Origin: a virus
Length of the DNA stretch: 64,000 nt
IMG/VR virus record: IMGVR_UViG_3300037420_000429
Direction: 5' to 3' (one strand)
In this document: positions 13,520 to 40,810 of the stretch, one piece after another
Numbering within the stretch: the stretch's first letter is position 1
Layout of the letters: every line of letters begins with the position of its first letter
Translations under genes and position numbers: made by a program
Notes under the pieces: model-generated
Database searches by the model: none
Told to the model about the DNA's origin: nothing
What the model saw: the letters and a program-made list of their open reading frames with translations, nothing else

Positions 13520-13520
13520 C

Positions 13521-18616: not shown

Positions 18617-19570
18617 ATGCCAAGGCTTAGCATTGATACCGTTATACGCCAGATTGAAGAGAAACAACCCGGAAAATACGGGTTTGACAAACTTGTCTAC
18701 AAAAGTTATAGGGGTAAGATAACCTTGTTTTGTAATGTGCACAAGGAGTACTTTGAGACTACTTTTGTGTCAGCTATAACTACAAGTTCTTGTAAAAAGT
18801 GCATAAAAGAAGAGATTCCTACTAGGCTTAGTCATACAAAAGATCAGTTTGTGTCGCGCGCAATAGAAGTGCACGGAGATAAGTACAGTTACGAAGAAGT
18901 AGAGTACGTAAATTCCCAAACAAAGATTAAAATCTGGTGCAAAAACCACAAAACATTTTTCTCTCAGATACCCAACAGCCATTTGCGCGGAAACGGGTGC
19001 CCTCTTTGCAGTGCAACTAATGTGGCGGAAAAGATTAATAACGCAGCACGAGAGCGCTTCGTGACTGAGGCTAAGAAAGTTAATCCTGATTATGATTACT
19101 CCAAAGCTCTCTACATCTCGGCACATAGAAAAGTTGAAGTAGTTTGCCATAAACACGAAAGCTTTTGGATCAGGCCAACTAATATTTTAGCAGGGATTGG
19201 TTGCCCATCTTGCTCTAAAAATGGATACAACATCGACAGGTCTGGACATTTATATGTTTTGACTTGCGGAGATATAACAAAGATAGGCATCACAAACCGA
19301 CTTGTCTCGCGTAGACAACGGGAAATCTCAAAATCTTTTGGACACAAATTTGACCTGTTTCGCAAATACTTCTTTGAAGATGGTAGACACCCTTACGAAC
19401 TTGAGAGAATTCTATTGCAAGAACTGCGGGAGCAACACCTTCAACCGTCTAAGATATTCGATGGACGAACAGAGTCATTTTTGTCAGTAAATAACGAAAT
19501 TTTAATTGCACGTATCGAGCAACTAATCAAAGAGCAATATAGCTCTAAACCAGCTTCGCAAGAAGCATAA
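18617..19570 (+). CDS. free-standing homing endonuclease, GIY-YIG superfamily (T5orf172-like) with triplicated zinc-ribbon DNA-binding repeats
   Basis: Three repeats of C-x-x-H…F…C-P-x-C (FCNVHKEYF…CKKC, WCKNHKTFF…CPLC, VCHKHESFW…CPSC), then GHLYVLTCGDITKIGITNRLVSRRQRE. AT-rich insertion between the tube and chaperone genes. Confidence 0.7.
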   Translation: MPRLSIDTVIRQIEEKQPGKYGFDKLVYKSYRGKITLFCNVHKEYFETTFVSAITTSSCKKCIKEEIPTRLSHTKDQFVSRAIEVHGDKYSYEEVEYVNSQTKIKIWCKNHKTFFSQIPNSHLRGNGCPLCSATNVAEKINNAARERFVTEAKKVNPDYDYSKALYISAHRKVEVVCHKHESFWIRPTNILAGIGCPSCSKNGYNIDRSGHLYVLTCGDITKIGITNRLVSRRQREISKSFGHKFDLFRKYFFEDGRHPYELERILLQELREQHLQPSKIFDGRTESFLSVNNEILIARIEQLIKEQYSSKPASQEA

Positions 19571-20488: not shown

Positions 20489-23400
20489 ATGGCTCTAGAA
20501 GCATCTGTACTTACAGTACGTGTGCAATCTGACGGGATTGAAAACACAACAAAGGCTCTCGAAGCACTCGCTGCTGCTGGCGAGAAAGCTGAGAAGAAGA
20601 CATCTAACATCGGTAGTGGTGCACAAGCCTCTGCCAAAGCACAGGTGGATGCTGCTCAACAGGCGGCATCTGCATACAATGCCATCATCGACATGATGAC
20701 GGAGAAGGCTAATACGTTCTACTCTGACAAAGCCACGAAGGCTGCAATGGCCGCTCAGCAAGAGCTTTTCGATGGTATGTCGATGATGGACAAGTTGTGG
20801 GCGCATGCTGAAGAAACACGACAAAAAGAAGCTGCTGCTCGTGCAAAAGAAGCTGAAGACATCCGTACTAGGCAGGCACAACAATTAGCAGATGCAACCG
20901 CTGCGAGTGAAAAAGCACTTGCTATCCAATTCGACGCTTATCAAAAACAGAAGCAGATGGAAGCCAATGCACAAGCCAAAGGCGATGCGCTTAATCAAGC
21001 AGGGCAACGTGCTGCTGAATACGCAAAGCTGCAAGCTGACATTAAAGCTCTCAAAGAAGAAACTGACAAGTTACGGGCTGCTGAGAAAGCAGAACAAGAG
21101 CAACGCGAGAAGATTGATTATGCTGCTTGGATTGCCCGTGGTAAAGCTGCCGCACAGGCTACACGAGAGCAAGAGGCTGCACTTCAAGCTAAACAAAAAG
21201 CTGAACAACAATCTGCTGTGCAAGCTGAGGCTTTTGTAGCTGCTTTGAAGCGTCAAGCAGATACTGTGGGGATGACCACAAAAGAATTGCGAGACTACAA
21301 TGCTGAAGTGCTCCGTAAACGTGCTGCCGAGCTTGGTGTTTCTGCACAAACCGACGAGTATATCAACAAGCTGAAGAGTGCTAAAGGTGCCCATGAAGGG
21401 TTGAGCCTTGCTACGGCAGGTACATCGCGTGAGTTGTTGGTTCTTACACACGAACTTGCCACAGGCCAGCTTAACCGTTTCTACGGCTCCTTGCTGGTAT
21501 TGGGCGAGCGCGTCAACGTAATGCCTGCCATTTGGAAAGCGCTAGGTAGTGCTGCGAGCGCGCTTGGTGTGTCGTTCGGTGTGCTGCTAGGTGGTATCGT
21601 CGCTGTAGGTGTTGCGCTAGTTGCCGGGATTATGACGTACATGCACAGTGCTTCCGCCCTCAAAGACCTGAACAAAGAAGTTGTTCTGACAGGTAATTCT
21701 GCTGGAGCTACAGGTGATGCACTCTACACGATGGCAAACCGCATCGGCTCTGCCTACGGCGAATTCGGCAAGGCTCGTGAGGCTGTTATTGCCGTTGCTT
21801 CCACAGGTAAATTCACTGCGGATCAAATTAACCTGATCGCAGAAGCAGCAGTCGGAATGGAAAAGTACGCTGGAGTGTCTGTTGAGAAGACAGCAGCAGC
21901 TTTTGAGAAACTGGCTGGCAATCCTTTGAAGATCACTGACAAAGGCTTCAAAGACGTATCGAATGCCGCGATGCAGCTTGACGAACAAATGCACTTCCTT
22001 GAGCCCACAGTGCTTGCACATATTATTCAGCTTGAACGCGAGGGTGAACACGCAGCAGCATCGCGTATCGCCATCAAGGCGCTTGCGGACGAGGAAAAAG
22101 CTCGTGCGGAAGAACTCAAGGCTCAACTTACACCTTTCGGGCAATTGCTGGATACACTGGCTGAGAAGGCTTCTAATTTCTGGAACAAACTCCTGCACAA
22201 AGGCAGTAAGGACGACCAACTACAAGCCCTGCAAGAAAAACTTCAGAAAATGCAGAATGACCCGTACAATATCGAGTCTGGTGGTTATTCCAAAGAAGAT
22301 ATCGATAATGTGAAGGCGGCTATCAAAAATCTTCAGAATGAAATTCTGCAAGGTGAATATGATGCTGCTGAAAAGGGGCACAAGAAAACAATGGACCGCC
22401 TTGCCAATGAGCAACAGGTTTATTTGCGAAACTTGATGGAGCGTTCCAAAGGTGAGGAAAATCTTCAGCAGCGCCTTGCCCGGTTTGACAACATCATTGC
22501 ACAACAACGTGAGCGTGCAAAGAATGACCCTGCTTACGCTGCACAAATGCAGGGTGCGCTGTCTGATGCCAGTGTTGAAATGATGCGCAAGCAAGTTGAG
22601 CGAGATAGTATCAAAGCGGGACCGAAGCCTCATACAGAAGGTATGTCTGGTTTAGATAAGATCATCAACCAAATTAACGAAGAGTACGAAGTTCAGAAGC
22701 GTGCAATGGACAACAAAATCAAGCTTATTGATTTTCAGAATAAGTATGGCTTGATGGAAGATGAAAAGGCCCAATCCGAGAAAGAAGACATCCTCGACCA
22801 AGAGCTTGAACTTGAAAAAGACCATCTTCAAAAAGCATTGGATGCAATCAAAGCTTTCCATACTGAAGATGTCCGCTTGAAGAACGATGCTGCGAGCAAA
22901 AAAGCAAACATTCAGAAACAGCTTGACAAGGTGATGAGCGATATCGCCCTCAAGCAAAAAGAGAATGATCTTGTCCCTGACGTGAACTTGGCAGCAGAGC
23001 AAGTGAAACAACAAAAAGAGCAAGACAACATCCTCAAGCAGATTGAAAAACAGACGGCATCAGTCCAAGCACAAGTGGATGCCTACAATAATCTGCCAGA
23101 CGCCGTTAAAGCTGTTGGTGTGCGGCAGAAGGAAATGGCAAGTGAAGTTGAACAAGCAAAAATTGATTCGCTGGAAGTTGAAAAAGAAAAGCTCCTCAAC
23201 ATGGATGCAATGTACACTATTGTCAATCAACGGCGAATCGACCAGATCGACAAAGAGAGTGCTGCACGGCAGAAGTTGAAAGGTGTGTTTGTTGAAAAAG
23301 AGGCAAACGACGCTCAGAACAACGCTGCCCTTAATCGATCCTCGGCGCTGACTAAAATCGCAACAGAGCAAGTTAAAATCTGGAAAGATGTTGGTAACGA

Positions 23401-26074
23401 GATTGGTAAAACCCTGAAAGTAGCATTTGGAAGTGGTGGCGAAGCAGCCGGACGTATGTTTAAAGAGTTTGCCGAGAATCAGGCAGATCAAATTGACTTA
23501 ATTAACAAAGCACGCCTTGTTCGCGAGAATGCTTCTCTCAGTGCGTCTGAAAAAGAAAAGCAGCTCAGTGATATCCAGTTGCAAAGCACTGAAGTTCAAA
23601 TGAACACGTTTGGAAATATGGCAGCAGCGTCTGCTGACTTCTTCCAAAAAGGTTCCACAGGCTATCAAGCAATGGCTAAAGCTGCAATGGTGTTGCACAC
23701 TGCCGAAGTTGCTCTGTCCTTGATTAAAGGTGTCAACGCGATCCTGACGCAAGGTGAAGGCGATCCGTACACAGCGTTTGCCCGTATGGCTGCGATGACT
23801 GCATTGGTTGCTGGCCTTGGTGTTGCTGTTTCTGGTGGTGGTAGTGGTCCTATATCTTCAGGAGAGCAACAGCGGAGGCAGGGCACTGGAACAGTGTTGG
23901 GTTCTCCGACAATCACTGACGGTGTTGATGTCAGGCTAGTGGGTCAGAAATCTGATTCGATTGCAAATTCGCTGAAAATCGCTGAGAAGAATTCTGGACT
24001 TGGACTTGTTGTGCAAAATGACATGCTTGACGCTCTGCGAAAGCTTAACGACAACATCTCAAAGTTTGCAATTCTGGCTGTTCAGAATAGTGGCTTGACT
24101 GGGTACACAGCAAACAATTCGCAATCGTTTGGTGGTAAGGGGTTATCGTCAGCCGGAAGTCTTCTCGGAGCGGGTGTCGGTTATGCGGCAGGGGCAGGTT
24201 TTACAGCCTTTACTGCGATGGCTTCCCTTGGAGGACCAATCGGACTTGCTGTTGGCGCTGTGCTCGGCCACGTGCTGCCCAGAGCACTCAGTTCCGTGTT
24301 CGGTGGATCTAAAACAGTTGACGACACTGGCCTGGCAATCGGCAAGACAACTCTTGGCCAAGTAGACGTATCTGGCCTGATGGGCAGTCAGTACACCAAT
24401 ACAACAACTTCAGGTGGTTGGTTCCGTAGCGACAAGCACTCTACAGACACGCAATCCCTTGGCACTGAGTTCAACGACCAAATCACTAAAGTTGTTACGA
24501 GCATGGAAGACACGCTTAAAACAGCAGCAGTTGGGTTAGATATGGGCGGTGATGCATTCAATGAGAAACTGAAAAGCTTCGTCGTTGACATTGGTAACAT
24601 CAGCCTGAAAGGTATGACCGGCGACGAGATTCAAAGCACATTGATGAACGTGTTCTCCAAGCTTGGAGACCAAATGGCTCAATTCGCATTCTCCGACCTT
24701 CAGAAGTATCAGAAGATTGGTGAAGGGTTGATGGAAACTGTTGTGCGTGTTGCTAATGATCTGCAACAAGTGAAAGACGTGTTTGATTCGCTCAGCAAGA
24801 CAATTCCAAAAGCCGTAGACGCAATTGCAACATCGGAAGCGTTGATTGCGCAATTCGGGTCCGTTGACAATCTGACGAAAGGTGTTAAGGGCTACATCAA
24901 CGCAATCTACACAGACCAAGAAAAGCTTATGCCGATCATCAAGTCTGTGTCTACTGCAATGGATGGCCTTGGCTTGTCTTACGTTAAAACTAAAGAGCAA
25001 TTCAAGCAAGTGGTGGATAGCCTTGATTTGACAACAGAGGCAGGCGCTAAAATGTTTGCTACGCTGATGAACATTGCTCCTGCATTTGCGCAGACGATTG
25101 ACGACACTGAGAAGCTTGCAAACGATGCTCGTAGTGCTTTGACTGATGCATATAAGCGCGAGTCCGATGCGATTAAAGATACGCAAGACAAGATGAAGAA
25201 TCTTGTCACCACTTTGAAGCAGTTGTCTTCTTCTAGTCTGCTTGGTGATCTTTCTCCGCTTACTCCGCAACAGAAATATCTTGAAGCTAAATCCCAGTTT
25301 GAGACTGTTGCTGAAAAGGCGCAGAACGGTGATAAAGATGCACAAGGGCAGTTTGAGGCAGCTTACACAGCCTTCCTTGAGGCTTCTAAAGTAGCTAATG
25401 CATCAGGTGCGCAATACCAGAAAGACTTCGTGTACGCACAGAAAGTGACGCAGCAAGCAACTGAATGGGCTCAGAAACAAGTGAATGTTGCGCAAGCTAC
25501 GTTGGATGCTTTGAACAAACAAGTGGAAGGTTTGATTGATGTTAATGACAGCTTGCTTACTGTTTCTCAAGCTATCGCCAATCTCATCACTGCGTTGAAA
25601 GGCACTCCGCAAGGAGACAAAGTAGCGAATCAAGCAGCAAGCAATGCGCAGTCAGCAATTGAAAAACTGTATGGAGATATTCTTCACCGCGCCTCGGATG
25701 CAGCAGGTATGCAATTCTGGTTGGATAAGGTGAAAGACGGTGTTTCGATGACGGACATTGCTAATGCAATTGCCAACAGCCCTGAAGCTAAAGGTGAAAT
25801 TAAGCCGATTGGAAGCACTGGTAGTACTCAGGCAGTGACGCCTGTGACAGCAACAGTTTCAACAGGTACACAGTCTGCTGTGCATGCCGAAGTTGTCGCA
25901 GCTATTAACGACTTGAAGGTAACCATCGAGGAGTCTAACCAATCCACGACTAACAAGCTTGTGGGTGCAGTGTACGATTCTCAAGACAATGCTGCTAACA
26001 AGATTGTGAGCGGGACTACTGGTGCAATTGCATCAACTAAAGTTGGAAGCACTTATAAAATTGTAGAGAGGTAA
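20489..26074 (+). CDS. tape measure protein (1861 aa)
   Basis: Huge Ala/Gln/Lys/Glu-rich coiled-coil ORF with central hydrophobic segments, downstream of G/GT. Has a DUF4214-like segment near its C-terminus. Confidence 0.9.
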   Translation: MALEASVLTVRVQSDGIENTTKALEALAAAGEKAEKKTSNIGSGAQASAKAQVDAAQQAASAYNAIIDMMTEKANTFYSDKATKAAMAAQQELFDGMSMMDKLWAHAEETRQKEAAARAKEAEDIRTRQAQQLADATAASEKALAIQFDAYQKQKQMEANAQAKGDALNQAGQRAAEYAKLQADIKALKEETDKLRAAEKAEQEQREKIDYAAWIARGKAAAQATREQEAALQAKQKAEQQSAVQAEAFVAALKRQADTVGMTTKELRDYNAEVLRKRAAELGVSAQTDEYINKLKSAKGAHEGLSLATAGTSRELLVLTHELATGQLNRFYGSLLVLGERVNVMPAIWKALGSAASALGVSFGVLLGGIVAVGVALVAGIMTYMHSASALKDLNKEVVLTGNSAGATGDALYTMANRIGSAYGEFGKAREAVIAVASTGKFTADQINLIAEAAVGMEKYAGVSVEKTAAAFEKLAGNPLKITDKGFKDVSNAAMQLDEQMHFLEPTVLAHIIQLEREGEHAAASRIAIKALADEEKARAEELKAQLTPFGQLLDTLAEKASNFWNKLLHKGSKDDQLQALQEKLQKMQNDPYNIESGGYSKEDIDNVKAAIKNLQNEILQGEYDAAEKGHKKTMDRLANEQQVYLRNLMERSKGEENLQQRLARFDNIIAQQRERAKNDPAYAAQMQGALSDASVEMMRKQVERDSIKAGPKPHTEGMSGLDKIINQINEEYEVQKRAMDNKIKLIDFQNKYGLMEDEKAQSEKEDILDQELELEKDHLQKALDAIKAFHTEDVRLKNDAASKKANIQKQLDKVMSDIALKQKENDLVPDVNLAAEQVKQQKEQDNILKQIEKQTASVQAQVDAYNNLPDAVKAVGVRQKEMASEVEQAKIDSLEVEKEKLLNMDAMYTIVNQRRIDQIDKESAARQKLKGVFVEKEANDAQNNAALNRSSALTKIATEQVKIWKDVGNEIGKTLKVAFGSGGEAAGRMFKEFAENQADQIDLINKARLVRENASLSASEKEKQLSDIQLQSTEVQMNTFGNMAAASADFFQKGSTGYQAMAKAAMVLHTAEVALSLIKGVNAILTQGEGDPYTAFARMAAMTALVAGLGVAVSGGGSGPISSGEQQRRQGTGTVLGSPTITDGVDVRLVGQKSDSIANSLKIAEKNSGLGLVVQNDMLDALRKLNDNISKFAILAVQNSGLTGYTANNSQSFGGKGLSSAGSLLGAGVGYAAGAGFTAFTAMASLGGPIGLAVGAVLGHVLPRALSSVFGGSKTVDDTGLAIGKTTLGQVDVSGLMGSQYTNTTTSGGWFRSDKHSTDTQSLGTEFNDQITKVVTSMEDTLKTAAVGLDMGGDAFNEKLKSFVVDIGNISLKGMTGDEIQSTLMNVFSKLGDQMAQFAFSDLQKYQKIGEGLMETVVRVANDLQQVKDVFDSLSKTIPKAVDAIATSEALIAQFGSVDNLTKGVKGYINAIYTDQEKLMPIIKSVSTAMDGLGLSYVKTKEQFKQVVDSLDLTTEAGAKMFATLMNIAPAFAQTIDDTEKLANDARSALTDAYKRESDAIKDTQDKMKNLVTTLKQLSSSSLLGDLSPLTPQQKYLEAKSQFETVAEKAQNGDKDAQGQFEAAYTAFLEASKVANASGAQYQKDFVYAQKVTQQATEWAQKQVNVAQATLDALNKQVEGLIDVNDSLLTVSQAIANLITALKGTPQGDKVANQAASNAQSAIEKLYGDILHRASDAAGMQFWLDKVKDGVSMTDIANAIANSPEAKGEIKPIGSTGSTQAVTPVTATVSTGTQSAVHAEVVAAINDLKVTIEESNQSTTNKLVGAVYDSQDNAANKIVSGTTGAIASTKVGSTYKIVER

Positions 26075-26075
26075 T

Positions 26076-27560
26076 ATGATTGATTTTGCGGCATGGCTTA
26101 AAAATCCTGCCGCTCCTCGTATTGTGTTGGTTGAGGTGAATGTGAAGAGTGGCGGGGTGGAAACAACCCGTTACCTTTCCACAGGGGTTTATGTGACGGC
26201 CCCTACAGACACCCCAGCGAACCAGCAATATCTTCCTGTACTAACATCCGGTTTGCAATACACAGAAAAGCTGGATGTTGAAGGTACAGGCGGGTTGTCT
26301 GGTGGCGATCTTGAGATTGCTAACAATAACGGCGAGCGAGATAGTTGGCTTAATGATGTGTGGGATAATCGATCCATTGTGGCATGGATTGGTGATCCTA
26401 GTTGGCAGCGGTCTGATTTTCAGATGATCTTCAATGGCATTGTTGCCACTATTGATAGCAAGGATGAGAAAACTCTTACGCTTACGATTCTTGACAAGCT
26501 TCAGAGGTTGAACACCCCGGCTACAGAACAGAAGATTGGAGATGTCAACACAACCGTACCTGCACCGACGAACAAGGATAACTTATTCAAACTTGCATTC
26601 GGCGAGGTGCACAACGTCACTCCTGAACTTCTGGATGCAACACAGCTTAAGTATCAAGTGCACAATGGCCCAATCGAAGATATCATCGAAGTGCGGGACA
26701 ATGGTATTCCTGTAGCTATTACGAAAAGTTTGTCTGATGGCACGTTCACCTTGTCTCATTCGTCGGCTGGCACGATTACAGCTTCTGTGCAAGGCGATAA
26801 GAACACAACATATGTAAATACTATTGCTGGTGTTATCCGTCGAATGGCAACCAAGTTCGGCACAGCCACGTCGCGGTACACAGATGCAGATATTGATCTT
26901 ACTAACTTCTCTGCATTTGATACAACGTGTCCACAACCAGTTGGGGTGTTTTTGGAGAGTGGAGATAACGTTCTAACCACTTGTCAGGAATTGGCCAAGA
27001 GTGTTGATGCACGTTTGGTGACATCTCGTTCGGGTTTGCTTCGTCTTATTCAAGTAAATATTGCAGGTACTGGAACTCCTGTAAGAATTGACACAACTCA
27101 GATTATTGTTGGCAGTCTTAAAATCAGCAGCAGGCCACTTGTACAAGCATCGATTAAGCTAGGATTTGACAAAAACTACACTGTGCAGGATAATCTACTT
27201 ACGAGCATTCCGGATGAACACAAGAAGCTTTTTGCACAAGAGTGGTTGACAACAACATCAACAAATGCAACAGCCAAGACAGACTACAAGCTTAACGCAG
27301 CCCCACCCAGAACTGACACAATGTTCTTACGTAGAGTAGATGCGGCAGCGGAGGCTGACAGGCGTGTTGCTTTGTGGAGCACTCCACGGAATGTGTTCCA
27401 ATTCACAGGAACGTCTGATCTGATCAACTCCCTGACGCTGGGTTGCGCAGTCACTTTGGTGCATCCTCGTTATGGTCTGTCGAACGGTAAAAATGGCGTG
27501 GTGGTGTCCCTGAGCCCTAATTGGTTCAATGGCACTATCATGGTGGAAGTTTTAATTTAA
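26076..27560 (+). CDS. tail tip / distal tail protein (putative)
   Basis: 494-aa ORF starting 1 nt after the tape measure stop. Function assigned by position only. Confidence 0.45.
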   Translation: MIDFAAWLKNPAAPRIVLVEVNVKSGGVETTRYLSTGVYVTAPTDTPANQQYLPVLTSGLQYTEKLDVEGTGGLSGGDLEIANNNGERDSWLNDVWDNRSIVAWIGDPSWQRSDFQMIFNGIVATIDSKDEKTLTLTILDKLQRLNTPATEQKIGDVNTTVPAPTNKDNLFKLAFGEVHNVTPELLDATQLKYQVHNGPIEDIIEVRDNGIPVAITKSLSDGTFTLSHSSAGTITASVQGDKNTTYVNTIAGVIRRMATKFGTATSRYTDADIDLTNFSAFDTTCPQPVGVFLESGDNVLTTCQELAKSVDARLVTSRSGLLRLIQVNIAGTGTPVRIDTTQIIVGSLKISSRPLVQASIKLGFDKNYTVQDNLLTSIPDEHKKLFAQEWLTTTSTNATAKTDYKLNAAPPRTDTMFLRRVDAAAEADRRVALWSTPRNVFQFTGTSDLINSLTLGCAVTLVHPRYGLSNGKNGVVVSLSPNWFNGTIMVEVLI

Positions 27561-27569
27561 AGGAATACA

Positions 27570-30500
27570 ATGGCAACAGTAATGAATGATAGGGATGTGC
27601 TCTTGCTGGGAATATCTCAGCGAGACGTAAACTCTCAAGATGCAACAATTTTAATTACGAGTGATTCTCCGACATTCCACGTAAGTGCAACTGGGACAAC
27701 CACTCCCTCCTACATTACTGTTACTGCCCACCTCCTCAACATTATTGGTACAGCTTCGTTCACTGCGACCGGAGCAACCATCACTGACAATGGCAATAAC
27801 ACCGCAACAGTGGCTTATAACGGGATGCCGGGAAGCACTGCAACGATTACTGCAAGTGTAACTCGGAACGGGACGACATACACCGCTAGTACCACTTTGT
27901 CTAAGGTTGTAGATGGTTCTGCTGGTCAATCTGGTTCTTCTGCGAGCTGGGTTGAAATTTCTACATTCGGGGGGCAAGTATTTAGTCGCACAACAGCGAC
28001 TAGCGCATTCTCTCCATCGTCTATTATCCTGAATGCCACACCTTACGGAAACAATGCTACCGATTATCAATGGCAGTATTGGACAGGCTCTACGTGGAGC
28101 AACATCAGCGGTGCTACATCAGCCACCTACGAAGTTGCATCTGGAGATTTTAGCTCGTCTCGTAACTTCCGCGTACAGGCTACGATTAATGGCAGTGTCT
28201 ATACGGACGAGATGACGCTTGTGCAAGTGACGGGTGGCACAAATTCTGTCAGCGGTTTCTTGACTAACCAGTCTATCACACTTGCCGCAGCAAACGACGG
28301 TACAGTGGTAAGCTATGCATCTGCCACTGGTACATTCAAAGTGTACGATGGCATCACAGATAAAACGGGTGCGAGCGTAACATATTCCGTTGTTTCTCAG
28401 ACTAATTGCACAGCCACTATTAATTCTTCCGGTGTTTACAGCATCACAGCAATGACGGCAGATACGGCGAGCGCTGTTCTGCAAGCAGTTTATAACGGAG
28501 TTACGATTCCGCTAACAGTGAATCTTGCGAAGTCTAGGACAGGTTCTGCTGGTACACCGGCTAATCAATACGCCACGGCTTATCTTTACCAATGGGCTGC
28601 TTCTGTTCCCGCAAATCCGACAGGCACATCCAATTACAATTGGTCCACTGGTGCCAACACCGGATACGTGACAAATGACGGGTGGAGCACTGCTGTCCCT
28701 ACAAATCCCGGCACTGCAAACCTTAACCTTTTTGTAGCCATCATTCAAATTGTGGCTACATCCGGAACTACGTCAAGCTCTGTGAGCTATACAAATGCAA
28801 CTGTTCAAGCATGGACTAAGAACGGCGCCACTGGCCCCCAAGGTGCTAGCGGAGTTCAGAGTGCCACAGCCACAGTTTATCAATGGGCTGCAAGTATTCC
28901 TGCGAGCCCTTCCGGTACAGCAACATACACTTGGAGTGGCGGGGCAATTAGTTCTATCCCCTCTGGTTGGTCTGCAACAGCAGGAACATCGCCAACACCG
29001 GGCATGACACTTTGGGCTGCTAAAGTTTATCTTACAGATGCTGCCACTGTTACACAAACAAGTTTTACTTGGACATCCTCTTCTGTTTCGTCCGTAGGAT
29101 ATGCTGGCAGCACAGGGCAACAAGGTGCGTCGTATGTTACAGCATACTGCGCTTCGTCCACAGCAACCACTACAACAGCCCCTGCACAGACAACTGGTAA
29201 GACAAGCCTGCCTGCTACAAATGATGGGGGCATCACTGGAACGTGGAGCAGCGCAGTACCATCTCTAACATCTGGACAATATTTGTATCAGTCCGATGGT
29301 ATTTATGATCCCACAACTGACAAAGTAACGTGGTCGATTCCTTATTGGTCTTCGTTGAAAGTGGGGAGCCTCAACGCCATTACAACGAACACTGGCAACT
29401 TGACTGTAAGTGGGACCATTAGCTCTGCGAACGGGAATTTCTCGGTAGACGCTGGTGGTGGTGTTACTATGAAGTCTGCCACAATCCAAGACGGCAGTGG
29501 TAACATCATTTTGCAAGCGGGTGTGGCACTGAGTTCGCAAACTAGTCAGGTTAGCACAGCCATTAACTCCGCTGCCACGACGGCAATTTGGAATAGCGTA
29601 ACCGGCACAGGTAGGCCAGAGGACAACGCCAACTTCACATCGCCCAGCAAGGGTAGTGCCCTGAATGATGACCCAAATCTGGAAAATCCGAACTCGTGGA
29701 ACATCGTCGGACCGAACATCAGCATTGCCGCAACTGGAGGCCTTGGTGGGGGTTCCGGGACGAAGTTCTTCACCTGCTCCTCCGGCACTGACCAGAAGGT
29801 AAGGGCAGTGCGGGCAGTGGCCGTGGACGCAGCCAAGACCTACAACCTGAACGCCCTGTTGTTCGCCGCCACCTCAGCCAACAACCGCAATATCTACCTG
29901 TTCGTAGATTTTTACGACTATCAGGGAACTTGGCTCAGCACTAGCTGGGGAGGTTCACAATCCGGATACACCTTCGGGGGCCTTCCGGCTACGACTTGGA
30001 CCCGTTATGGCGATTACTTTGGGGCAAACACCTCCAAGCCGATCCCATCAGACGCACGAACGATGGTTATCGGGGTGTGGTTTCAGTACGCCTCCGGTAC
30101 GTCTGCTGTCGGGCAAGGCGCGATGGATATCCGATTGGAGGAAGCAACCTCGATCTATAGCATCAGTGCTGACAACGTGCTGTCGAAGGGTGAGAAATCC
30201 GCTCTTATCAAAGAATGGAATACCATCGACGCGGAAAGCTACGATCTGGACGCCAAGGCCGACTCTCTGACTGTATCGCGTACAGATTACGACAATAAAA
30301 AAGCTGCCCTGTCTACGTATTTGCTGGGTTTATCGCCTGCATGGAATAACACAGCCGTGGATACAGCCATCGACGGTCCAACATTCCGCAGTAAGTTTAC
30401 TGATTATTACACCGCTAAACAGGCGCTTGTCAACGCCCTTGCTGCTACAGCAGCTGCTACGGCTACGTGGAGCGGTGTCACCGGTTCCGGCAAGCCGGCA

Positions 30501-31895
30501 GATAACGCCACAGTAGGAGCAACACTTGGTACGAACGTTAACGGCCAGATTACGAGTTTCAACTCTTCTACTCTGATCGCCAACCAAGCCATCAACTCGG
30601 TGCACATTTCCGATCTGCGCACGACCAATTATGCAGAAGATGGTAGTGGTAATCCTACTGCGGGTGCGAAGCTTTCTTCGACTGGAACTGCTTTGAAGGT
30701 TGAGAAGAATTCTTTCCAGATCGGCACTCTTGTCCTCAACGATTATTGGTTCCGACTTGTGCAGGGTATTGATGGCAGTGTCACGTCGAACAGGATCATC
30801 TGGCGAGGCAATAACGACGCTACGACAAGGGGCGGTGCGCCAGATATTAATTGCTTGTCCATCACTCCAAAGATGTCGATTATTGAGTACTACACTTCAG
30901 ATAACACACAAACAAACATCGGAGGTCTCCCGGGAAGTGGTACTGGTATGCACAGTGTTTTCTACGGCTTCGCCTTAACGCCGACATCCTACTCTAGTAA
31001 TACGGACAATTTAGATGCTATGCAACAAATTCATGTTCAATTTTTTGCGAAGCCTAATGACACATCCCCATTTACTGAAATTTATCAATCCTGCCCATCA
31101 AGAACGTATAGCGGATCAACAGGGGCAGATGGTGTCTCCCGAGGATCGTTCACAACGAGTTTCCTATTCGACGGCAATGCGTTATGGTATAGTCCGACAC
31201 CCCCCTCAGCCAATCCGAACCTTTCAGGTCAATCGCCGAACATTTTGCACGGTTCTGTAGGAGCAGGTGGTACTTATGGGGTTTATTGTGGCTACTTACG
31301 GGTCAGGGTGGCTAACACATATGGGTGGTCTGCAAGCAAGGACTTTGGTCCCACTACATCTACTGCTGGCGCTAGTACATCCAGTACTACTACCACATAC
31401 AAGAACAACATCATCTGCCCTGGCGGAACAATCACCGGCGTGGCAGGCTCTTCTGGTGGGGGTTCCGGCGCATCTGGAGGTGCTTGCCCGGCGCCTTGGG
31501 TTAAAGTGAGGCTATTGAATGGTAAAGAAATCAATGCGGCCGATCTCCATAACGGCGCAAGGCTTGCTGCTGTCAATGACAATAATATGCAAGTCCTGCC
31601 ACAAGGCGGCACTGTACGGGATTTGACAACAATTTGGGCACAACGCTATCGCGTCAAACTCACTAACGGCGCGGCTACCGAATGGAGTGAAAATCACCGA
31701 TTCGCAGTAGCGGAACGTGGTTGGGTTACAGTGCAAAATCTTCGTGGGGGTGATCAAATCCTTGGCTTGGAAGAAAGCATTGTAGAGTCTGTCCTTGCTG
31801 TTGGAGAAGGCCAAGTAGTTAGCTTCCGTGTCGAAGGCGCGGGTACGTATTTCGCTGGTGGCCTGTTGTGCCATAACACGAAAGCATCTTTCTAA
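27570..31895 (+). CDS. central tail fibre / host-specificity protein (1441 aa) with a C-terminal Hint module
   Basis: Thr/Ser/Gly/Ala-rich beta protein with internal repeat modules. Has W-x-x-V-T-G-x-G-K/R-P-x-DNA motifs typical of phage fibres. Lies after the tip protein. Confidence 0.75.
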   Translation: MATVMNDRDVLLLGISQRDVNSQDATILITSDSPTFHVSATGTTTPSYITVTAHLLNIIGTASFTATGATITDNGNNTATVAYNGMPGSTATITASVTRNGTTYTASTTLSKVVDGSAGQSGSSASWVEISTFGGQVFSRTTATSAFSPSSIILNATPYGNNATDYQWQYWTGSTWSNISGATSATYEVASGDFSSSRNFRVQATINGSVYTDEMTLVQVTGGTNSVSGFLTNQSITLAAANDGTVVSYASATGTFKVYDGITDKTGASVTYSVVSQTNCTATINSSGVYSITAMTADTASAVLQAVYNGVTIPLTVNLAKSRTGSAGTPANQYATAYLYQWAASVPANPTGTSNYNWSTGANTGYVTNDGWSTAVPTNPGTANLNLFVAIIQIVATSGTTSSSVSYTNATVQAWTKNGATGPQGASGVQSATATVYQWAASIPASPSGTATYTWSGGAISSIPSGWSATAGTSPTPGMTLWAAKVYLTDAATVTQTSFTWTSSSVSSVGYAGSTGQQGASYVTAYCASSTATTTTAPAQTTGKTSLPATNDGGITGTWSSAVPSLTSGQYLYQSDGIYDPTTDKVTWSIPYWSSLKVGSLNAITTNTGNLTVSGTISSANGNFSVDAGGGVTMKSATIQDGSGNIILQAGVALSSQTSQVSTAINSAATTAIWNSVTGTGRPEDNANFTSPSKGSALNDDPNLENPNSWNIVGPNISIAATGGLGGGSGTKFFTCSSGTDQKVRAVRAVAVDAAKTYNLNALLFAATSANNRNIYLFVDFYDYQGTWLSTSWGGSQSGYTFGGLPATTWTRYGDYFGANTSKPIPSDARTMVIGVWFQYASGTSAVGQGAMDIRLEEATSIYSISADNVLSKGEKSALIKEWNTIDAESYDLDAKADSLTVSRTDYDNKKAALSTYLLGLSPAWNNTAVDTAIDGPTFRSKFTDYYTAKQALVNALAATAAATATWSGVTGSGKPADNATVGATLGTNVNGQITSFNSSTLIANQAINSVHISDLRTTNYAEDGSGNPTAGAKLSSTGTALKVEKNSFQIGTLVLNDYWFRLVQGIDGSVTSNRIIWRGNNDATTRGGAPDINCLSITPKMSIIEYYTSDNTQTNIGGLPGSGTGMHSVFYGFALTPTSYSSNTDNLDAMQQIHVQFFAKPNDTSPFTEIYQSCPSRTYSGSTGADGVSRGSFTTSFLFDGNALWYSPTPPSANPNLSGQSPNILHGSVGAGGTYGVYCGYLRVRVANTYGWSASKDFGPTTSTAGASTSSTTTTYKNNIICPGGTITGVAGSSGGGSGASGGACPAPWVKVRLLNGKEINAADLHNGARLAAVNDNNMQVLPQGGTVRDLTTIWAQRYRVKLTNGAATEWSENHRFAVAERGWVTVQNLRGGDQILGLEESIVESVLAVGEGQVVSFRVEGAGTYFAGGLLCHNTKASF
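28560..29040 (+). repeat. intragenic tandem protein-repeat modules (about 65 aa) in the fibre gene
   Basis: YLYQWAASVPANPTGTSNYNWSTGA…DGWSTAVPTNPGT versus TVYQWAASIPASPSGTATYTWSGGA…SGWSATAGTSPTP. Confidence 0.6.
31485..31877 (+). other. Hint (intein/BIL-like) autoprocessing module, 131 aa, no endonuclease domain
   Basis: Cys1 block CPAPWVKVRLLNGKEINAADLHNG, block B WSENHRF, terminal YFAGGLLCHN followed by Thr+1 and KASF-stop. Preceded by a GSSGGGSGASGGA linker. Confidence 0.7.
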
Positions 31896-31907: not shown

Positions 31908-32423
31908 ATGACTAATACCGATGTACAAACTGCACTGGCAAATGAAGCTAGGCGTCAAGAGCTTCGACAGAGAATCGCCGGTTTGCAAGGCTCTATGAAT
32001 GCTACAGCTTCTCTGGTGCAACGCCTCAACAGCGTAAACAGTGATGCTCAAATCTCGCTGGCCTCTGCTCAAGATGAACTGATTGCACTGGAAGCTGGTG
32101 CAGGACCGGGAATCACAGCGGACTACGGCCCTAAATCCATTATCACGCAGTTGGTGGAATCGGAGAGGTTTGCTGCTAAAAGTGCTGCAATAGACTTCAT
32201 CAAAGCTAATCCAGAATGTACAGAAGAAGAGGCCGCACAAGCTTGGAATGATGCTGCAATTGCAAGCCACCCTGACTTCCCCCTTGTAATTCAAGATGCA
32301 ATCACTTTGTCTACGCTTTACAAAGCCAACCTGTTAAAAGCAAATCTTATCACGGACGATACTTGGGAATCTTATCGTGCATTTGTGATTAACACAGCCA
32401 AGAATGTTATCGAAACGATGTAA
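31908..32423 (+). CDS. hypothetical protein (171 aa, helical); fibre-associated by position
   Basis: AAGGAATCAAA-ATG start. Follows the fibre gene. Confidence 0.55.
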   Translation: MTNTDVQTALANEARRQELRQRIAGLQGSMNATASLVQRLNSVNSDAQISLASAQDELIALEAGAGPGITADYGPKSIITQLVESERFAAKSAAIDFIKANPECTEEEAAQAWNDAAIASHPDFPLVIQDAITLSTLYKANLLKANLITDDTWESYRAFVINTAKNVIETM

Positions 32424-33322: not shown

Positions 33323-33829
33323 ATGAAATATTCTGAGTTTAAAGAGGTCTGTCGAAGTGGTGATTTGATTTTTGTTTCGCATCGAGAGTGGAATACGCTA
33401 TCTGATATCGAAAGTCAGGTCGTTCGTATAGCCACAGAATCGGAATTTAGTCATGTGTGTGTTGCCTACCTCCACAACGGAGAGCCGTGCACAATCGAGT
33501 CTGTTGTACCTGCTGTCACGGTTAGCAGTCTTGAGAAGTATGCCACACAAGGGTTTTACTGGGTGTCTGTGGCAGATAAGCCTATGACTCCACTAGAAGA
33601 AGAGTACGGACTTTCTCAAATCGGAAAGCCTTATTCTAAGCTAGAGGCTGTTGAAGGCTACTTCGACCTTATAGAAATAGGCGGGTCGGAAAACTGGTTT
33701 TGTGCAGAGATCACCATTGCAATGCGTCGTCTTTCGGGACTTGATCTTGGAGGGCATTGTACGCCATCGGCAGTGGCTAAGAATGCTCTTGCAAAAGGTT
33801 ACTCCTTACAATTTGTAGAAAGAGATTAA
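33323..33829 (+). CDS. permuted papain-like (YiiX/C92, NlpC/P60-related) amidase-like protein
   Basis: 168 aa with the His motif first (EFSHVCVAY) and the Cys motif later (ENWFCAEITI), the order expected for the permuted C92 family. Confidence 0.5.
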   Translation: MKYSEFKEVCRSGDLIFVSHREWNTLSDIESQVVRIATESEFSHVCVAYLHNGEPCTIESVVPAVTVSSLEKYATQGFYWVSVADKPMTPLEEEYGLSQIGKPYSKLEAVEGYFDLIEIGGSENWFCAEITIAMRRLSGLDLGGHCTPSAVAKNALAKGYSLQFVERD

Positions 33830-33830
33830 T

Positions 33831-34115
33831 ATGGATTTTAACATGTTGTTGGGGCCAGTGCAAGCGCTACTGGGTGCTCTGTGCGCCGTGCTGTGGGCAA
33901 ATCTTACAGAGACAAAAAAGAAAGCGGAGAAGGTGGAGAACGACCTTGCCACGTACAAAGTACATGTGGCCGAAACCTATGCATCTAGTACAGAACTGAA
34001 AGAAGCTCTGCGAGACATCAATAAAGCTTTTGAGGCGTATGGCACCAAGCTTGACATGCGACTTGATCGGCTAGAGGAACGTCTTAATAAGATGATCGAC
34101 CAGAAGGAGCACTAA
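33831..34115 (+). CDS. membrane-anchored coiled-coil protein (holin or i-spanin-like lysis accessory)
   Basis: 94 aa. One N-terminal TM helix (LLGPVQALLGALCAVLWANL) followed by a charged coiled coil. Adjacent to the endolysin. Confidence 0.45.
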   Translation: MDFNMLLGPVQALLGALCAVLWANLTETKKKAEKVENDLATYKVHVAETYASSTELKEALRDINKAFEAYGTKLDMRLDRLEERLNKMIDQKEH

Positions 34116-37600: not shown

Positions 37601-40600
37601 TTACAATTTGCAGCTTTCGCAATCTGCTTCATCTTCTTCTAGCGTGAGGCCAGCTTTGCTATTGCTGTAGTAGCACGATTTATGGCCACACGTGATGCGA
37701 TAAAGCCAGTCTTCAAACATCTCCGTTGCACGAATCTTAGGTGTCACACCCGCAGGGAATGTACGGTACTTGTCTGCACTAATAGCTTGTCCACAAAACT
37801 TCTGGAAGATGCCGTACATTTCAGTAATATCTTTAGCAGGGACAGTCCATGCCAATTGATACGCATCTTCCAGTTCTTCCAAGTCTGGTGCAAGAAACAC
37901 GTTCTTGTTTGTACCGCTTGTCTTAACAACCACAAGCTCACGAACAGGGTATATGCTATTCGTAGTGTTGCCAGCAATGCTGCTCGACTCTACAGGCATG
38001 TATGCTTCAAGAACGCTGTTGCGCATGCCATGCTTTGCAATCTCCTTACGAAGCCCCTCCCAGTCGCACAGCAAAGGTTGATCCGTCACATTATCGATGT
38101 GTTTGCAGTACGTGTCAATAGGCAACCAACCATCTGCATACTTCGTCTTGTGGAACCAGTCGCATTTGCCACGCTCCTTAGCAAGACGCACACTAGCCTT
38201 GTGGAGCCAGTAAGAATGCATCTCAGCCAGTCGGTGCATGTAAGCTTTGCCCTCTGCCGTATCATATCGAAGCCCCTTAACAGCCATATCGTGTGCAAGG
38301 TTGGTAATACCAATACCAGCAGAACGTCGGGCTTGCGCAGTGTACTTCAAGTGTGGGAACGGATAGTCCATGATCGAAATCACGTTGTCAACCATCTTAA
38401 GTGTACGGTACGCCACTTCCTCATACATTTCAGGTATCACACGCCCTGCAACAATTGCACCTAGATTGCACAGACCAATCTCACCCTGCACATCGTCATC
38501 CATACGGTAAAGCTCTGTGACATCCTTGTAACCTTGAGTCGGCAATCCGATTTCTTGGCACTGTCCTGTCAAGATGCCATTGAACATCCCCATGTGACGC
38601 TTCGGTTCAGTGAAACAGTACGTGTCATCGTAACGACCTTCATCAACAACCTCAGTCACTTTGGTAAAGCGAGTACCATCTTGCCTTTCAGTTACACCAC
38701 TTACATCCAATCGCTTCGGACTAAACCCCAACGAAATCAATGTGTGAAGTCCACTGTTCCCGATATATAACGAGTAAGCGTCTTTGCAACTGTATCCGTG
38801 CTTTGCACCTGTCCCGTCATTCTTCGGCAACAGGATAACCCCTGCTTGTTTAGACAAACCAACACGCGACGGAACCCCTGTAGTTTGCAGCATAAGCTGG
38901 ATTTGCAGCAAAAACTTTTTGTTTACCGAAGTAAGATTCAATGCTTTTGCACCGTTATTTTCAGACACACAGCCGTCTGCATCCATGATGCCCTCCAGCC
39001 AAGAAATCCTAGACTGCACTGAAAAGGTTGCATCGGGCACAAAGAACTTTTGACGAAGCTTTTTTGTATAGCCGTAAGCCCTGTTTAGATCGGGCTGCAC
39101 CTTGACATTCTCTAGCAAATCGCCAAAAAGACTCATCAACGCCTGCTTTGCGCCGTAAAAATAAATCTTTTGCCGCCCGTCTTCAACAGAGCCATCACCA
39201 GAGAAAAACCCGTTTGCGTACGAGTTTTCAAGACTCTCACTACCATTCACGACGGGTAGTGATGCAGGCTTCACAAGACGGATTCCTGCTTTCAAGTCCT
39301 TGGCAGCAATCGGAGTCTTGATCCCCGGCAGGTAAAACTTATGCTCAGGTGTGCAGTGAATCGTTTGGCCTGCATCCGTCACAACCTTAATTAGTTTTAC
39401 ATTGTGCCCAGTTTGCTTAATCTGCACGTTAGACCACTCGGAGCCGTTCCAAACGTCAACAAACTTGTCAGTAACACTCACAATTGGTACATACCCTTTA
39501 GATGTCAGGATCAACGTTTCAGGTGCAACACACAGGTTGCTACTGTAGATTACGTCCTTGAAAGGGGTGTGCCTATTCATTTCGTAAGTGTTATGCTCGT
39601 ACATGCGCCCGGTTTCCTCTTGAATCCGCAGAAACTCTAATGCTAGCTTACGTGCCGGAATAAACTTCTTACGCTTACTACTCTTTTCATGCTCAGCATA
39701 CAGACGTTCAAAGCTTCCATCATCACGGTACATTGCCTCCCACAGATTAGGATTCACCTTATAGCTGATGTTCATCCACTGTTCATTCTTAGCAGCCTTC
39801 TCCGCAAGCAGAGGGTGGAAGCCAAAACTATAGTCAAGACGACGCTCTGCTTTCGATGCAACCGTTGTTGGGTGACGAAGGCGCAGCAACGTCTCAATCT
39901 CAGGATCAAGAGCGTTGATGTGCATCGTCTCTGCGCCGCCCCTACCGCCTTGCAAGTTGGCATTCACAGCACTTGCTTGTGCATTGTAGTACGGCAGCTT
40001 ACCGCCGTGGCGAATAGTATTCTTACGAACACCATCACCTTTACTGCGAGTCATCAACATGCCGCCAATGCCTGCACTGGAAGCCGTCATGATTGTGGCA
40101 ATGTGATCGCCAGCAGCCAAGCTTCCAAGCTCATCGTTGCTCTTGTAGACGCAGCAAGAGGCATACGTGCGTTTGGGGGTGCCAAGATTGTTAATGTTCG
40201 GCGTTGGTGCATTGATGCGCCCAGTTGCGAAATCTTCATAGAACTCTTGCACAGATTTCATGCGAGTTTCTTTAGGCTCATCCTTGCATACACCAAGAGC
40301 CATCCGCATCCACACAAATGCGGGCGACTCCAACACAATGTTCTTCTCGATGTCCTTGATAGCGTATTTGGTCGTGATCTGATTGACGACAGAGTAAACG
40401 CTATTCAGGTCACGCTCGTGGTTGATAAAGTCTTCAGCGAGACGAAGTTCTCCCCAAGAGTACTCCATTTCCTCCCACAAACCATCAGCCACCATCTTTG
40501 CGTACATGATGTGCACACTAGGAATCTTATCATGCCCACCAAACGCTTGCTTATACACATCGCCAATCAACAGACGACCTGCCATCAGCATATGCGGCGT

Positions 40601-40810
40601 ATCTTCATAATCCATGCAAGCTTGAATCATAGCCTGCTGCAAATCTTTCGTAGTGCAAGTGTCAGGTAGCTTCTTGTACGTGTCAGCAACAATGCCGAAC
40701 CAATCTACACCAATGTTACCTGCCCATTTAGCCCAACGAGTAAGCTTCTCAGGATCAAACGGGACAACAGAACCATCCCGCTTAGTAACCATAATATGCT
40801 TCTCAGTCAT
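37601..40810 (-). CDS. nrdA: ribonucleotide reductase class Ia large subunit, intein-containing precursor (1069 aa)
   Basis: N-terminal ATP-cone-like MVTKRDGSVVPFD. Catalytic motif SSNL|C…|CQEIGLPT is split by 324 aa. The conserved C-terminal half is present. Confidence 0.9.
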   Translation of the reverse strand: MTEKHIMVTKRDGSVVPFDPEKLTRWAKWAGNIGVDWFGIVADTYKKLPDTCTTKDLQQAMIQACMDYEDTPHMLMAGRLLIGDVYKQAFGGHDKIPSVHIMYAKMVADGLWEEMEYSWGELRLAEDFINHERDLNSVYSVVNQITTKYAIKDIEKNIVLESPAFVWMRMALGVCKDEPKETRMKSVQEFYEDFATGRINAPTPNINNLGTPKRTYASCCVYKSNDELGSLAAGDHIATIMTASSAGIGGMLMTRSKGDGVRKNTIRHGGKLPYYNAQASAVNANLQGGRGGAETMHINALDPEIETLLRLRHPTTVASKAERRLDYSFGFHPLLAEKAAKNEQWMNISYKVNPNLWEAMYRDDGSFERLYAEHEKSSKRKKFIPARKLALEFLRIQEETGRMYEHNTYEMNRHTPFKDVIYSSNLCVAPETLILTSKGYVPIVSVTDKFVDVWNGSEWSNVQIKQTGHNVKLIKVVTDAGQTIHCTPEHKFYLPGIKTPIAAKDLKAGIRLVKPASLPVVNGSESLENSYANGFFSGDGSVEDGRQKIYFYGAKQALMSLFGDLLENVKVQPDLNRAYGYTKKLRQKFFVPDATFSVQSRISWLEGIMDADGCVSENNGAKALNLTSVNKKFLLQIQLMLQTTGVPSRVGLSKQAGVILLPKNDGTGAKHGYSCKDAYSLYIGNSGLHTLISLGFSPKRLDVSGVTERQDGTRFTKVTEVVDEGRYDDTYCFTEPKRHMGMFNGILTGQCQEIGLPTQGYKDVTELYRMDDDVQGEIGLCNLGAIVAGRVIPEMYEEVAYRTLKMVDNVISIMDYPFPHLKYTAQARRSAGIGITNLAHDMAVKGLRYDTAEGKAYMHRLAEMHSYWLHKASVRLAKERGKCDWFHKTKYADGWLPIDTYCKHIDNVTDQPLLCDWEGLRKEIAKHGMRNSVLEAYMPVESSSIAGNTTNSIYPVRELVVVKTSGTNKNVFLAPDLEELEDAYQLAWTVPAKDITEMYGIFQKFCGQAISADKYRTFPAGVTPKIRATEMFEDWLYRITCGHKSCYYSNSKAGLTLEEDEADCESCKL
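38561..39532 (-). mobile_element. intein with a LAGLIDADG homing endonuclease domain, inserted at the catalytic-Cys motif of NrdA
   Basis: aa 427-750. Starts CVAPETLILT. LAGLIDADG motifs NGFFSGDGSV and LEGIMDADGCV. Ends …FNGILTGQ, followed by Cys+1. The spliced sequence restores SNLCQEIGLPT. Confidence 0.85.

Follow-up and report, generated by a model that had tools for sequence, protein, structure and literature searches.

How does a phage tail fibre come to end in a protein-splicing domain with almost nothing left to splice, and what would such a domain do there? We address this question for a predicted tail fibre gene in the IMG/VR virus record IMGVR_UViG_3300037420_000429, a stretch of 64,000 nucleotides (the window). 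An initial annotation, made from the letters of the DNA, had placed a complete Hint (intein-like) module without an endonuclease domain at positions 31485–31895, at the extreme C-terminus of a 1441-residue fibre, with a C-extein of only five residues. Our reading of the DNA and of the open reading frame (ORF) bore out the module and each of its elements at these coordinates (Table 1). The fibre end runs from TITGVAGSSGGGSGASGGA on the linker side to CPAPWVKVRLLNGKEINAADLHNG, which starts with the module's first residue (Cys1), then through WSENHRF and GTYFAGGLLCHN to the tail TKASF and the two stop codons TAA TAA. A longer C-extein reached by read-through or frameshifting was rejected in view of the tandem stops and the conserved tail length in relatives. 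We propose, with a probability of roughly 60%, that the fibre is made as a precursor and that its C-terminal 131-residue domain, which resembles type-A bacterial intein-like (BIL) domains, processes itself off.

A conserved Hint domain at the ends of tail proteins

Searches with the sequence of this one module gave only marginal matches, and a plain hidden Markov model (HMM) scan would miss the Hint domain. Pfam matches had E-values of 0.002 to 0.007, all under the gathering score (for Intein_splicing, E = 0.007 and 16.6 bits, against a gathering score of 35.8). The NCBIfam model for intein-containing radical SAM proteins matched at 3e-4, phmmer against the PDB stayed above E = 0.2, and AlphaFold run on the single sequence reached a predicted local distance difference test (pLDDT) score of 34. 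The identity of the module is settled because its relatives give significant profile and structure matches. We used an alignment of 25 module sequences (A2) both as a profile against PDB sequences and as AlphaFold2 input. The top profile match was the BIL domain of Clostridium thermocellum (2LWY, E = 1e-8), and other matches were the NpuDnaB intein (4O1R, 4e-8), the gp41-1 intein (6QAZ, 1.5e-7) and the pretoxin Hint domain of Streptomyces UmbC (8W20, 2e-7). The AlphaFold2 model had a pLDDT of 94.5 and a predicted template modelling (pTM) score of 0.87. Its best Foldseek match in the PDB was the Ssp DnaB mini-intein (1MI8, E = 6e-10), with a template modelling (TM) score of 0.84 and a root mean square deviation (rmsd) of 2.0 Å. 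Further matches included Mtu RecA, Tetrahymena BIL2 (TM 0.85), Hedgehog (0.78) and 2LWY (0.80), and the best 50 of the 59 matches at E≤1e-3 were all inteins, BIL domains or Hedgehog. By fold, by family profile and by the presence of Cys1 and a block-B (S/T)-x-x-H motif, the module is a member of the Hint superfamily, and the HMM and structure-prediction checks that the initial annotation had suggested both returned a Hint match. At 131 residues, the size of a mini-intein, it has no insert and no room for an endonuclease, and we found no other sign of mobility.

The module belongs to a large family in which the catalytic residues do not vary. An exhaustive profile search of 1.84 billion representatives returned 1167 proteins (50%-identity clusters) at E≤1e-3, 223 at ≤1e-10 and 59 at ≤1e-30. 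We counted residues in 149 complete modules, drawn from the best 150 of the 1167 proteins plus earlier hits. Cys1, the block-B His and the terminal His-Asn were present in all 149, and the catalytic positions were invariant down to approximately 25%–30% identity. Ser or Thr stood three residues before the block-B His in 138 modules, and the Thr-Tyr pair of block F was nearly constant (Thr in 146, Tyr in 144). Module length ranged from 124 to 139 residues in host proteins of 200–2500 residues, and in 114 of the 149 no more than 12 residues separated the module from the C-terminus, the other 35 having more than 12 residues after His-Asn. The mode of tail length was five residues, and 107 members had tails of 3–8 residues.

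The residues that flank the module showed a different pattern of conservation from that expected of a splicing intein. The +1 residue was variable (Ala 25, Ile 24, Leu 19, Thr 18, Val 18, Lys 13, Met 8, and others), and Phe, Tyr, Leu or Ile occupied this position already in relatives with ~60%–75% module identity. Thr+1 was common to the closest relatives, whose tails read TKASF, TKSV or TKTIT. Because the family as a whole has Ser or Thr at +1 in only 21 of 149 modules and never Cys, Thr+1 in this fibre is incidental. The initial annotation had credited the module with the full set of splicing blocks; Cys1, block B and His-Asn stand, but Thr+1 is not conserved, whereas Lys+2 is. This Lys was present in 134 of the 149 modules and in 105 of the 107 members with short (3–8 residue) tails, and Lys occurred at either +1 or +2 in 146, compared with a background Lys frequency of 4.5% within modules. 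It is about as conserved as the catalytic residues, and could be structural, catalytic or an acceptor amine. On the other side, the 15 residues before Cys1 averaged 55% Gly, with at least five Gly in 90% of members. A poly-Gly stretch, C-P-A-P-W ... S-H-N-x-K and a stop codon can serve as a signature for annotating putative fibres of this class. We also observed tandem arrays of three to five related Hint domains in single proteins (P0088, P0096, P0122, P0129 and P0167). Consecutive copies in P0096 and P0122 are joined by HN-K-GG(G)-C, such that Lys+1 and Gly-Gly precede the next Cys1, and P0096 additionally carries a Tim44-like domain.

Presence of the module in homologous fibres, which the initial annotation had left to a survey, was without exception among loci with a substantial match to the distal domain. 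We found 39 IMG/VR loci by the variable distal domain that precedes the module; three matched only its first ~30 residues and have different ends, and all 36 loci with a substantial match end in the linker, the Hint module and an HN-x-K tail, so that no Hint-less allele of the distal domain occurred among them. A search with the last 541 fibre residues returned 37 proteins, and all those with the distal domain share the linker-Hint ending, although one (P0028) appears frameshifted inside the module. No Hint-less homologue of the distal domain appeared in that search or in a word-index search with the distal domain, the latter being uninformative with only four proteins.

Rates of divergence indicate that the module is maintained. 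In the same pairs of loci, nonsynonymous divergence (dN) was 0.04–0.33 for the Hint module versus 0.09–0.54 for the adjacent distal domain, which evolves 2–7 times faster by this measure. For pairs with measurable synonymous divergence (dS), dN/dS of the module was 0.014–0.044. The module is thus under strong purifying selection, and no other part of the distal fibre is as conserved. Identity along window positions 30150–31877 was uneven in the comparison set (L004, L005 and L009): relative to L004, the collar was 90%, the distal domain 59% and the Hint module 91% identical, and relative to L009 the values were 62%, 87% and 92%. This pattern suggests a mosaic distal fibre, with conserved flanks between which the variable domain is swapped.

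Tail modules of three different architectures carry the Hint module, which is widespread and fixed in tail proteins. All family members that we checked were tail proteins or were encoded within tail gene clusters, and of eight distant members in which other domains precede the module, seven matched tail PHROGs (tail protein, central tail fiber J, straight fibre). One homologue (L001) lies in the fibre block of an SU10-like podophage; a second (L002) directly follows gpJ in a lambda-like Pyxidicoccus prophage and is named "Hint domain-containing protein" by NCBI; and a third, on an IMG/VR contig (L059), ends in the module and has an N-terminal region that, judged by eye, resembles gpJ-type central fibres. 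In the SU10-like podophage, a neighbouring second fibre-like protein (13506–14639 of that locus) carries a Peptidase_S74 intramolecular chaperone domain, and this phage thus uses both kinds of C-terminal self-processing module, the Hint processing being predicted. Known host links of the family are an Oxalobacteraceae metagenome-assembled genome fragment (P0012) and Myxococcales prophages, such as those of Myxococcus, Corallococcus or Pyxidicoccus that encode WP_163998690-like proteins. A scan of genome contigs with another alignment (A1) gave no match, and a tblastn search of 50,697 deposited phage genomes with three divergent modules as queries failed to reveal a counterpart. Its matches, at 27%–37% identity, were mainly terminase inteins, together with a few unannotated or hypothetical regions in Lak phages, a fecal phage and Microcystis phage Mvi-JY20.

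Predicted self-processing and its alternatives

Conservation in this family covers the residues that an N–S acyl shift (N-terminal junction) and Asn cyclisation (C-terminal junction) require, but not the nucleophile that classical splicing uses to form its branched intermediate. Type-A BIL domains keep His-Asn, have no +1 nucleophile and cleave more than they splice (PMC4031507). The residue pattern of the fibre module matches this description, and we therefore propose that the module cuts itself out. The initial annotation had considered a BIL-like outcome more plausible than classical splicing, a view that the +1 pattern beside an invariant catalytic set supports. The invariance of Cys1, the block-B His and His-Asn, together with purifying selection on the module, indicates that catalysis is under selection. 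The +1 pattern, the description of type-A BILs and the fact that the closest solved sequence (2LWY) is a BIL domain indicate that classical splicing is not what is selected.

The chemistry, timing and purpose that we propose are predictions from these features. Cys1306, aided by the Ser and His of block B, would turn the Ala1305-Cys1306 peptide bond into a thioester that ends the flexible Gly-rich linker, and Asn1436, aided by His1435, would cyclise and cut the bond to TKASF. Hydrolysis of the thioester would then leave a fibre of ~1305 residues ending in the Gly-rich linker. Alternatively, the freed amino group of the pentapeptide might attack the thioester and yield the fibre joined to TKASF; this is how type-A BILs can splice, through attack on the thioester by the amino group that Asn cyclisation releases (PMC4031507). 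Both outcomes would remove the ~15 kDa module from the fibre tip. We suggest that, until it removes itself, the module may cap the distal, fast-evolving and presumably receptor-binding domain while this domain folds or assembles.

Several points weigh against self-removal as the function of the module. Plain removal leaves unexplained why a stop codon in place of the module would not suffice, and it also leaves unexplained the constraint on a tail of ~5 residues, the near-invariant Lys+2 and the ubiquitous poly-Gly linker. We know of no Hint domain with a chaperone or trimerising role. The gap between 2LWY and the best intein in the A2 profile search is 2 bits (38.4 versus 36.5 bits), which does not separate a BIL domain from a mini-intein, and Thr+1 makes classical splicing chemically possible in this particular protein.

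The alternative that survives best, although we consider it unlikely, is that the module drives conjugation. The thioester on the Gly linker would be passed to a specific amine or hydroxyl, and the fibre C-terminus would become covalently joined to it; in a variant of similar standing, an isopeptide bond would form at the fibre tip without enzyme or ATP, and the module would be a conjugation device and not a disposable cap. The acceptor could be the epsilon-amine of Lys+2, an adjacent fibre chain, the 171-residue protein encoded directly downstream (the partner), or a component of the host surface or envelope. The excess of Lys at +1/+2 over background and the flexible poly-Gly before Cys1 in ~90% of members are consistent with conjugation. 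Ubiquitin-like proteins have a Gly-Gly tail, of which this poly-Gly is reminiscent, and Hedgehog passes its thioester to cholesterol. Tetrahymena BIL2, among the top structural matches of the module, joins the ubiquitin-like domain that precedes it to a lysine through an isopeptide bond (PMC8616854). The partner gene is also tightly linked, and the gene upstream of it ends in a Hint module in 20 of 20 IMG/VR loci that contain it. However, the partner follows only 19 of the 36 Hint fibres and is missing after the other 17, for which reason we rejected it as a universal acceptor. The lysine of the distal-domain motif NPTAGAKL was rejected in the same role since the motif is also present in Hint-less fibres (L070 and L071). 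Relatives with long C-terminal extensions also keep Lys at +1/+2, as do tandem arrays, so its role in this Hint clade may simply be structural or catalytic.

A second alternative, to which we give a low probability, is that the module stays on the virion as the distal tip, either as a binding domain or as a latent device that would fire on host contact and, for example, release the fibre from its receptor or trigger a later step. Being the most conserved part of the distal fibre, the module could fit such a role, and intein-type thioester equilibria can remain latent until a nucleophile arrives. However, all four catalytic positions are absolutely conserved, which argues that catalysis is selected beyond the fold, and a conserved receptor-binding surface would be odd beside a quickly diversifying domain.

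We regard as very unlikely that the module is a classical class-1 mini-intein, a selfish insertion that has lost its endonuclease and in which Thr1437 would serve as nucleophile and rejoin the fibre to TKASF. Cys1, S-x-x-H, His-Asn and Thr+1 all occur in this protein, Thr+1 is shared by the closest relatives, and mini-inteins are the top structural matches. The module nonetheless fails the tests for a classical intein, as judged from sequence comparison, on three counts: the +1 nucleophile is missing already in fairly close relatives, none of the 36 loci is an intein-less allele, and the insertion site is the end of a hypervariable domain with no conserved catalytic motif. It also lacks an endonuclease. 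The window offers an internal contrast in its ribonucleotide reductase (RNR) large-subunit gene (37601–40810, minus strand), which carries a canonical 324-residue intein (nt 38561–39532, minus strand). This intein starts with CVAPETLIL, contains a LAGLIDADG_3 domain (Pfam, 9e-13), ends in ...NGILTGQ (Gly-Gln, without His-Asn) followed by Cys+1, and sits in the catalytic SNL|C.E motif.

Descent from a pretoxin-HINT protein, in which an ancestral fibre-HINT-toxin would have lost its payload and kept a vestigial tail, is highly improbable: distant relatives above the Pfam PT-HINT threshold, the UmbC profile match, the 35 long-tailed relatives and the HINT peptidases known on tail-fibre-like stalks of polymorphic toxins (Zhang et al. 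2012, PMC3482391) speak for it, but the short tail is found in the majority, is constrained in length and is under strong purifying selection, and so is no decaying remnant, and five long-tail relatives (P0101, P0134, P0141, P0143 and P0157) have no Pfam toxin domain after the Hint module.

Self-removal of the module, if it takes place as proposed, would mean that the annotated fibre lengths and tip structures of this class are wrong by ~15 kDa, and that the real distal end is a flexible Gly tail, possibly with a short Lys peptide. If conjugation takes place instead, viruses would have their own version of the cholesteroylation of Hedgehog and of the ubiquitin-like conjugation that BIL domains mediate.

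The fibre gene and its neighbours

The fibre gene follows tape measure and tail protein genes (Table 1), and its product is listed as an unnamed JGI metagenome protein. Megablast of the gene against phage records gave no matches, and tblastn matches of the whole fibre to these records were confined to an internal stretch (residues ~177–380) that resembles tail fibre, straight fibre and pb4 proteins of Klebsiella, Pectobacterium and Enterococcus phages. Within the collar, residues 862–992 match phrog_31539 at 6e-30. Relatives P0029–P0040 match only the collar part (GKPADNATVGA motif), and their ends are without a Hint module. The distal domain had no match in a profile search of the PDB and none in the Pfam scan of the fibre.

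Table 1. Coordinates in the window of the fibre gene, the parts of its C-terminal end and the adjacent genes
Feature	Position	Strand	Remarks
Tape measure gene	20489-26074		phrog_24, 4e-47; upstream of fibre ORF
Tail protein gene	26076-27560		phrog_8917; upstream of fibre ORF
Tail fibre / tail-tip precursor ORF, 1441 aa	27570..31895	+	After tape measure and tail protein genes
Collar region, residues 861-1040	30150..30689	+	Common to many fibres with other distal ends
Variable distal (pre-Hint) domain, residues 1041-1292	30690..31445	+	Presumed receptor-binding part
Gly/Ser linker GSSGGGSGASGGA, residues 1293-1305	31446..31484	+	Ala1305 is the -1 residue of the predicted scissile bond
Hint (type-A BIL-like) module, Cys1306-Asn1436, 131 aa	31485..31877	+	Profile, AlphaFold2, Foldseek, family conservation
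Cys1 codon TGC	31485..31487	+	Predicted thioester nucleophile; Cys in 149/149 family modules
Block B S-E-N-H (Ser1373...His1376)	31686..31697	+	His in 149/149
Terminal His1435-Asn1436 (CAT AAC), block G	31872..31877	+	Asn predicted to form succinimide; His-Asn in 149/149
Five-residue tail TKASF (Thr+1, Lys+2)	31878..31892	+	Read from DNA
Lys1438 (Lys+2) codon	31881-31883	+	Lys at +1/+2 kept family-wide (P0003-P0177)
Tandem stop codons TAA TAA	31893..31898	+	Read from DNA
Partner gene, 171 aa, directly downstream of fibre	31908..32423	+	Conserved in related loci

The partner gene was found directly after Hint-terminated fibres in three unrelated tail architectures. Its product is 59% identical to that of the gene right after the Hint fibre in the SU10-like podophage and 28% identical to its counterpart in the Pyxidicoccus prophage, and had no Pfam, PHROG or PDB match. 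The gene is absent in the group of Hint fibres with the pattern CVAPWEP...AHNLKPRD. The partner may help to assemble fibres that have this type of distal domain.

Other genes of the window were also of note. An HNH/endonuclease-like ORF (18617–19570, plus strand; phrog_681, 6e-59) lies within the structural block, between the head and tail genes. The structural block also encodes an 803-residue protein (13521–15932, plus strand) with a SASA (sialate O-acetylesterase-like carbohydrate esterase) domain at residues 451–603, which may be a receptor-modifying virion enzyme. Just 3' of the fibre block (33323–34115, plus strand) are ORFs of 168 and 94 residues. The former has a weak match, under the cutoff, to Peptidase_C92 (permuted papain-like amidase, 4e-4). 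The latter matches best to phrog_7885 (8e-12), which has no assigned function, and weakly to phage lipoprotein or Rz-like spanin families (phrog_462, 6e-6; phrog_739, 3e-4). These two ORFs may mark the start of a lysis cassette.

Comparison with known systems

With no fewer than 1167 clusters at the 50% identity level, the module is common. Its settings include tail modules of the siphophage-like, lambda-like and SU10-like types as well as prophages of myxobacteria. Its absence from the deposited phage genomes, as probed with three divergent queries, may explain why it has been overlooked. The initial annotation knew of no characterised fibre of this kind, in agreement with our literature search, which covered full text with most subscription journals outside its reach and yielded no account of a Hint or BIL domain at the end of a phage fibre; the promising papers dealt with terminase or RNR inteins only. 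A Hint/BIL module as a self-removing fibre end would thus be new to the literature that we reached. It would also provide a compact natural tag, predicted to cleave itself or generate a thioester and already fitted to fibre ends, for engineering receptor-binding proteins, and a new natural context for asking what purpose BIL domains serve, a question as old as their discovery.

Type-A BIL domains, represented by 2LWY, are similar to the fibre module in the Hint fold, the N-terminal Cys, the block-B His, His-Asn and the lack of a conserved +1 nucleophile. They also sit in variable parts of non-housekeeping, extracellular-type proteins, and the fibre module lies in the distal part of a tail fibre or tip. 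By these defining features we assign the module to the type-A BIL description; the bit scores given above do not separate it from mini-inteins. It differs in its fixed position at the very end of phage tail fibre or tip proteins, with a poly-Gly linker before it and a ~5-residue tail with a near-invariant Lys+2 after it. None of these three features (C-terminal position, poly-Gly linker, Lys+2 tail) is part of the BIL description in PMC4031507.

Pretoxin HINT domains (PF07591) are likewise autoproteolytic Hint domains near the C-terminus of long filamentous proteins, including tail-fibre-like stalks (PMC3482391). In comparison, the fibre module has no toxin payload, being followed only by TKASF and two stops, and its genes lie in phage tail modules, whereas PT-HINT is found in toxin-immunity loci. 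The module in the window had no PT-HINT match at E≤0.01 in Pfam. Matches occurred in 7 of the 25 A2 members (best E = 1e-4), all below the gathering score, and the distant relatives P0134, P0141, P0128, P0122 and P0096 pass that score.

Class-1 mini-inteins (Ssp and Npu DnaB, Mtu RecA, gp41-1) share the fold of the fibre module (TM 0.82–0.84, rmsd ~2 Å) and blocks A, B and G. They differ by their conserved +1 nucleophile, empty alleles and insertion in conserved motifs, none of which we found for the fibre module, and its C-extein is vestigial. The Hedgehog autoprocessing domain and BIL2 of Tetrahymena BUBL are also structural matches (TM 0.78–0.86). In both, the Hint domain turns an upstream C-terminal Gly into a thioester, which is passed to cholesterol (Hedgehog) or to lysine (BIL2). 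The fibre module has no sterol-recognition region and, unlike Hedgehog, keeps His-Asn.

The known precedent for the theme of a self-removing fibre end is Peptidase S74, a C-terminal chaperone domain that removes itself from phage fibres and endosialidases, uses a Ser-Lys dyad and acts in the trimer. The likeness to S74 drawn by the initial annotation holds as a functional analogy but not as a relation of sequence or fold, as the fibre has no Pfam S74 match and the best 50 fold matches are all Hint proteins. Together, these comparisons place the fold and predicted chemistry of the module with known Hint and BIL domains, and it is the fibre-end context and the C-terminal signature that are new.

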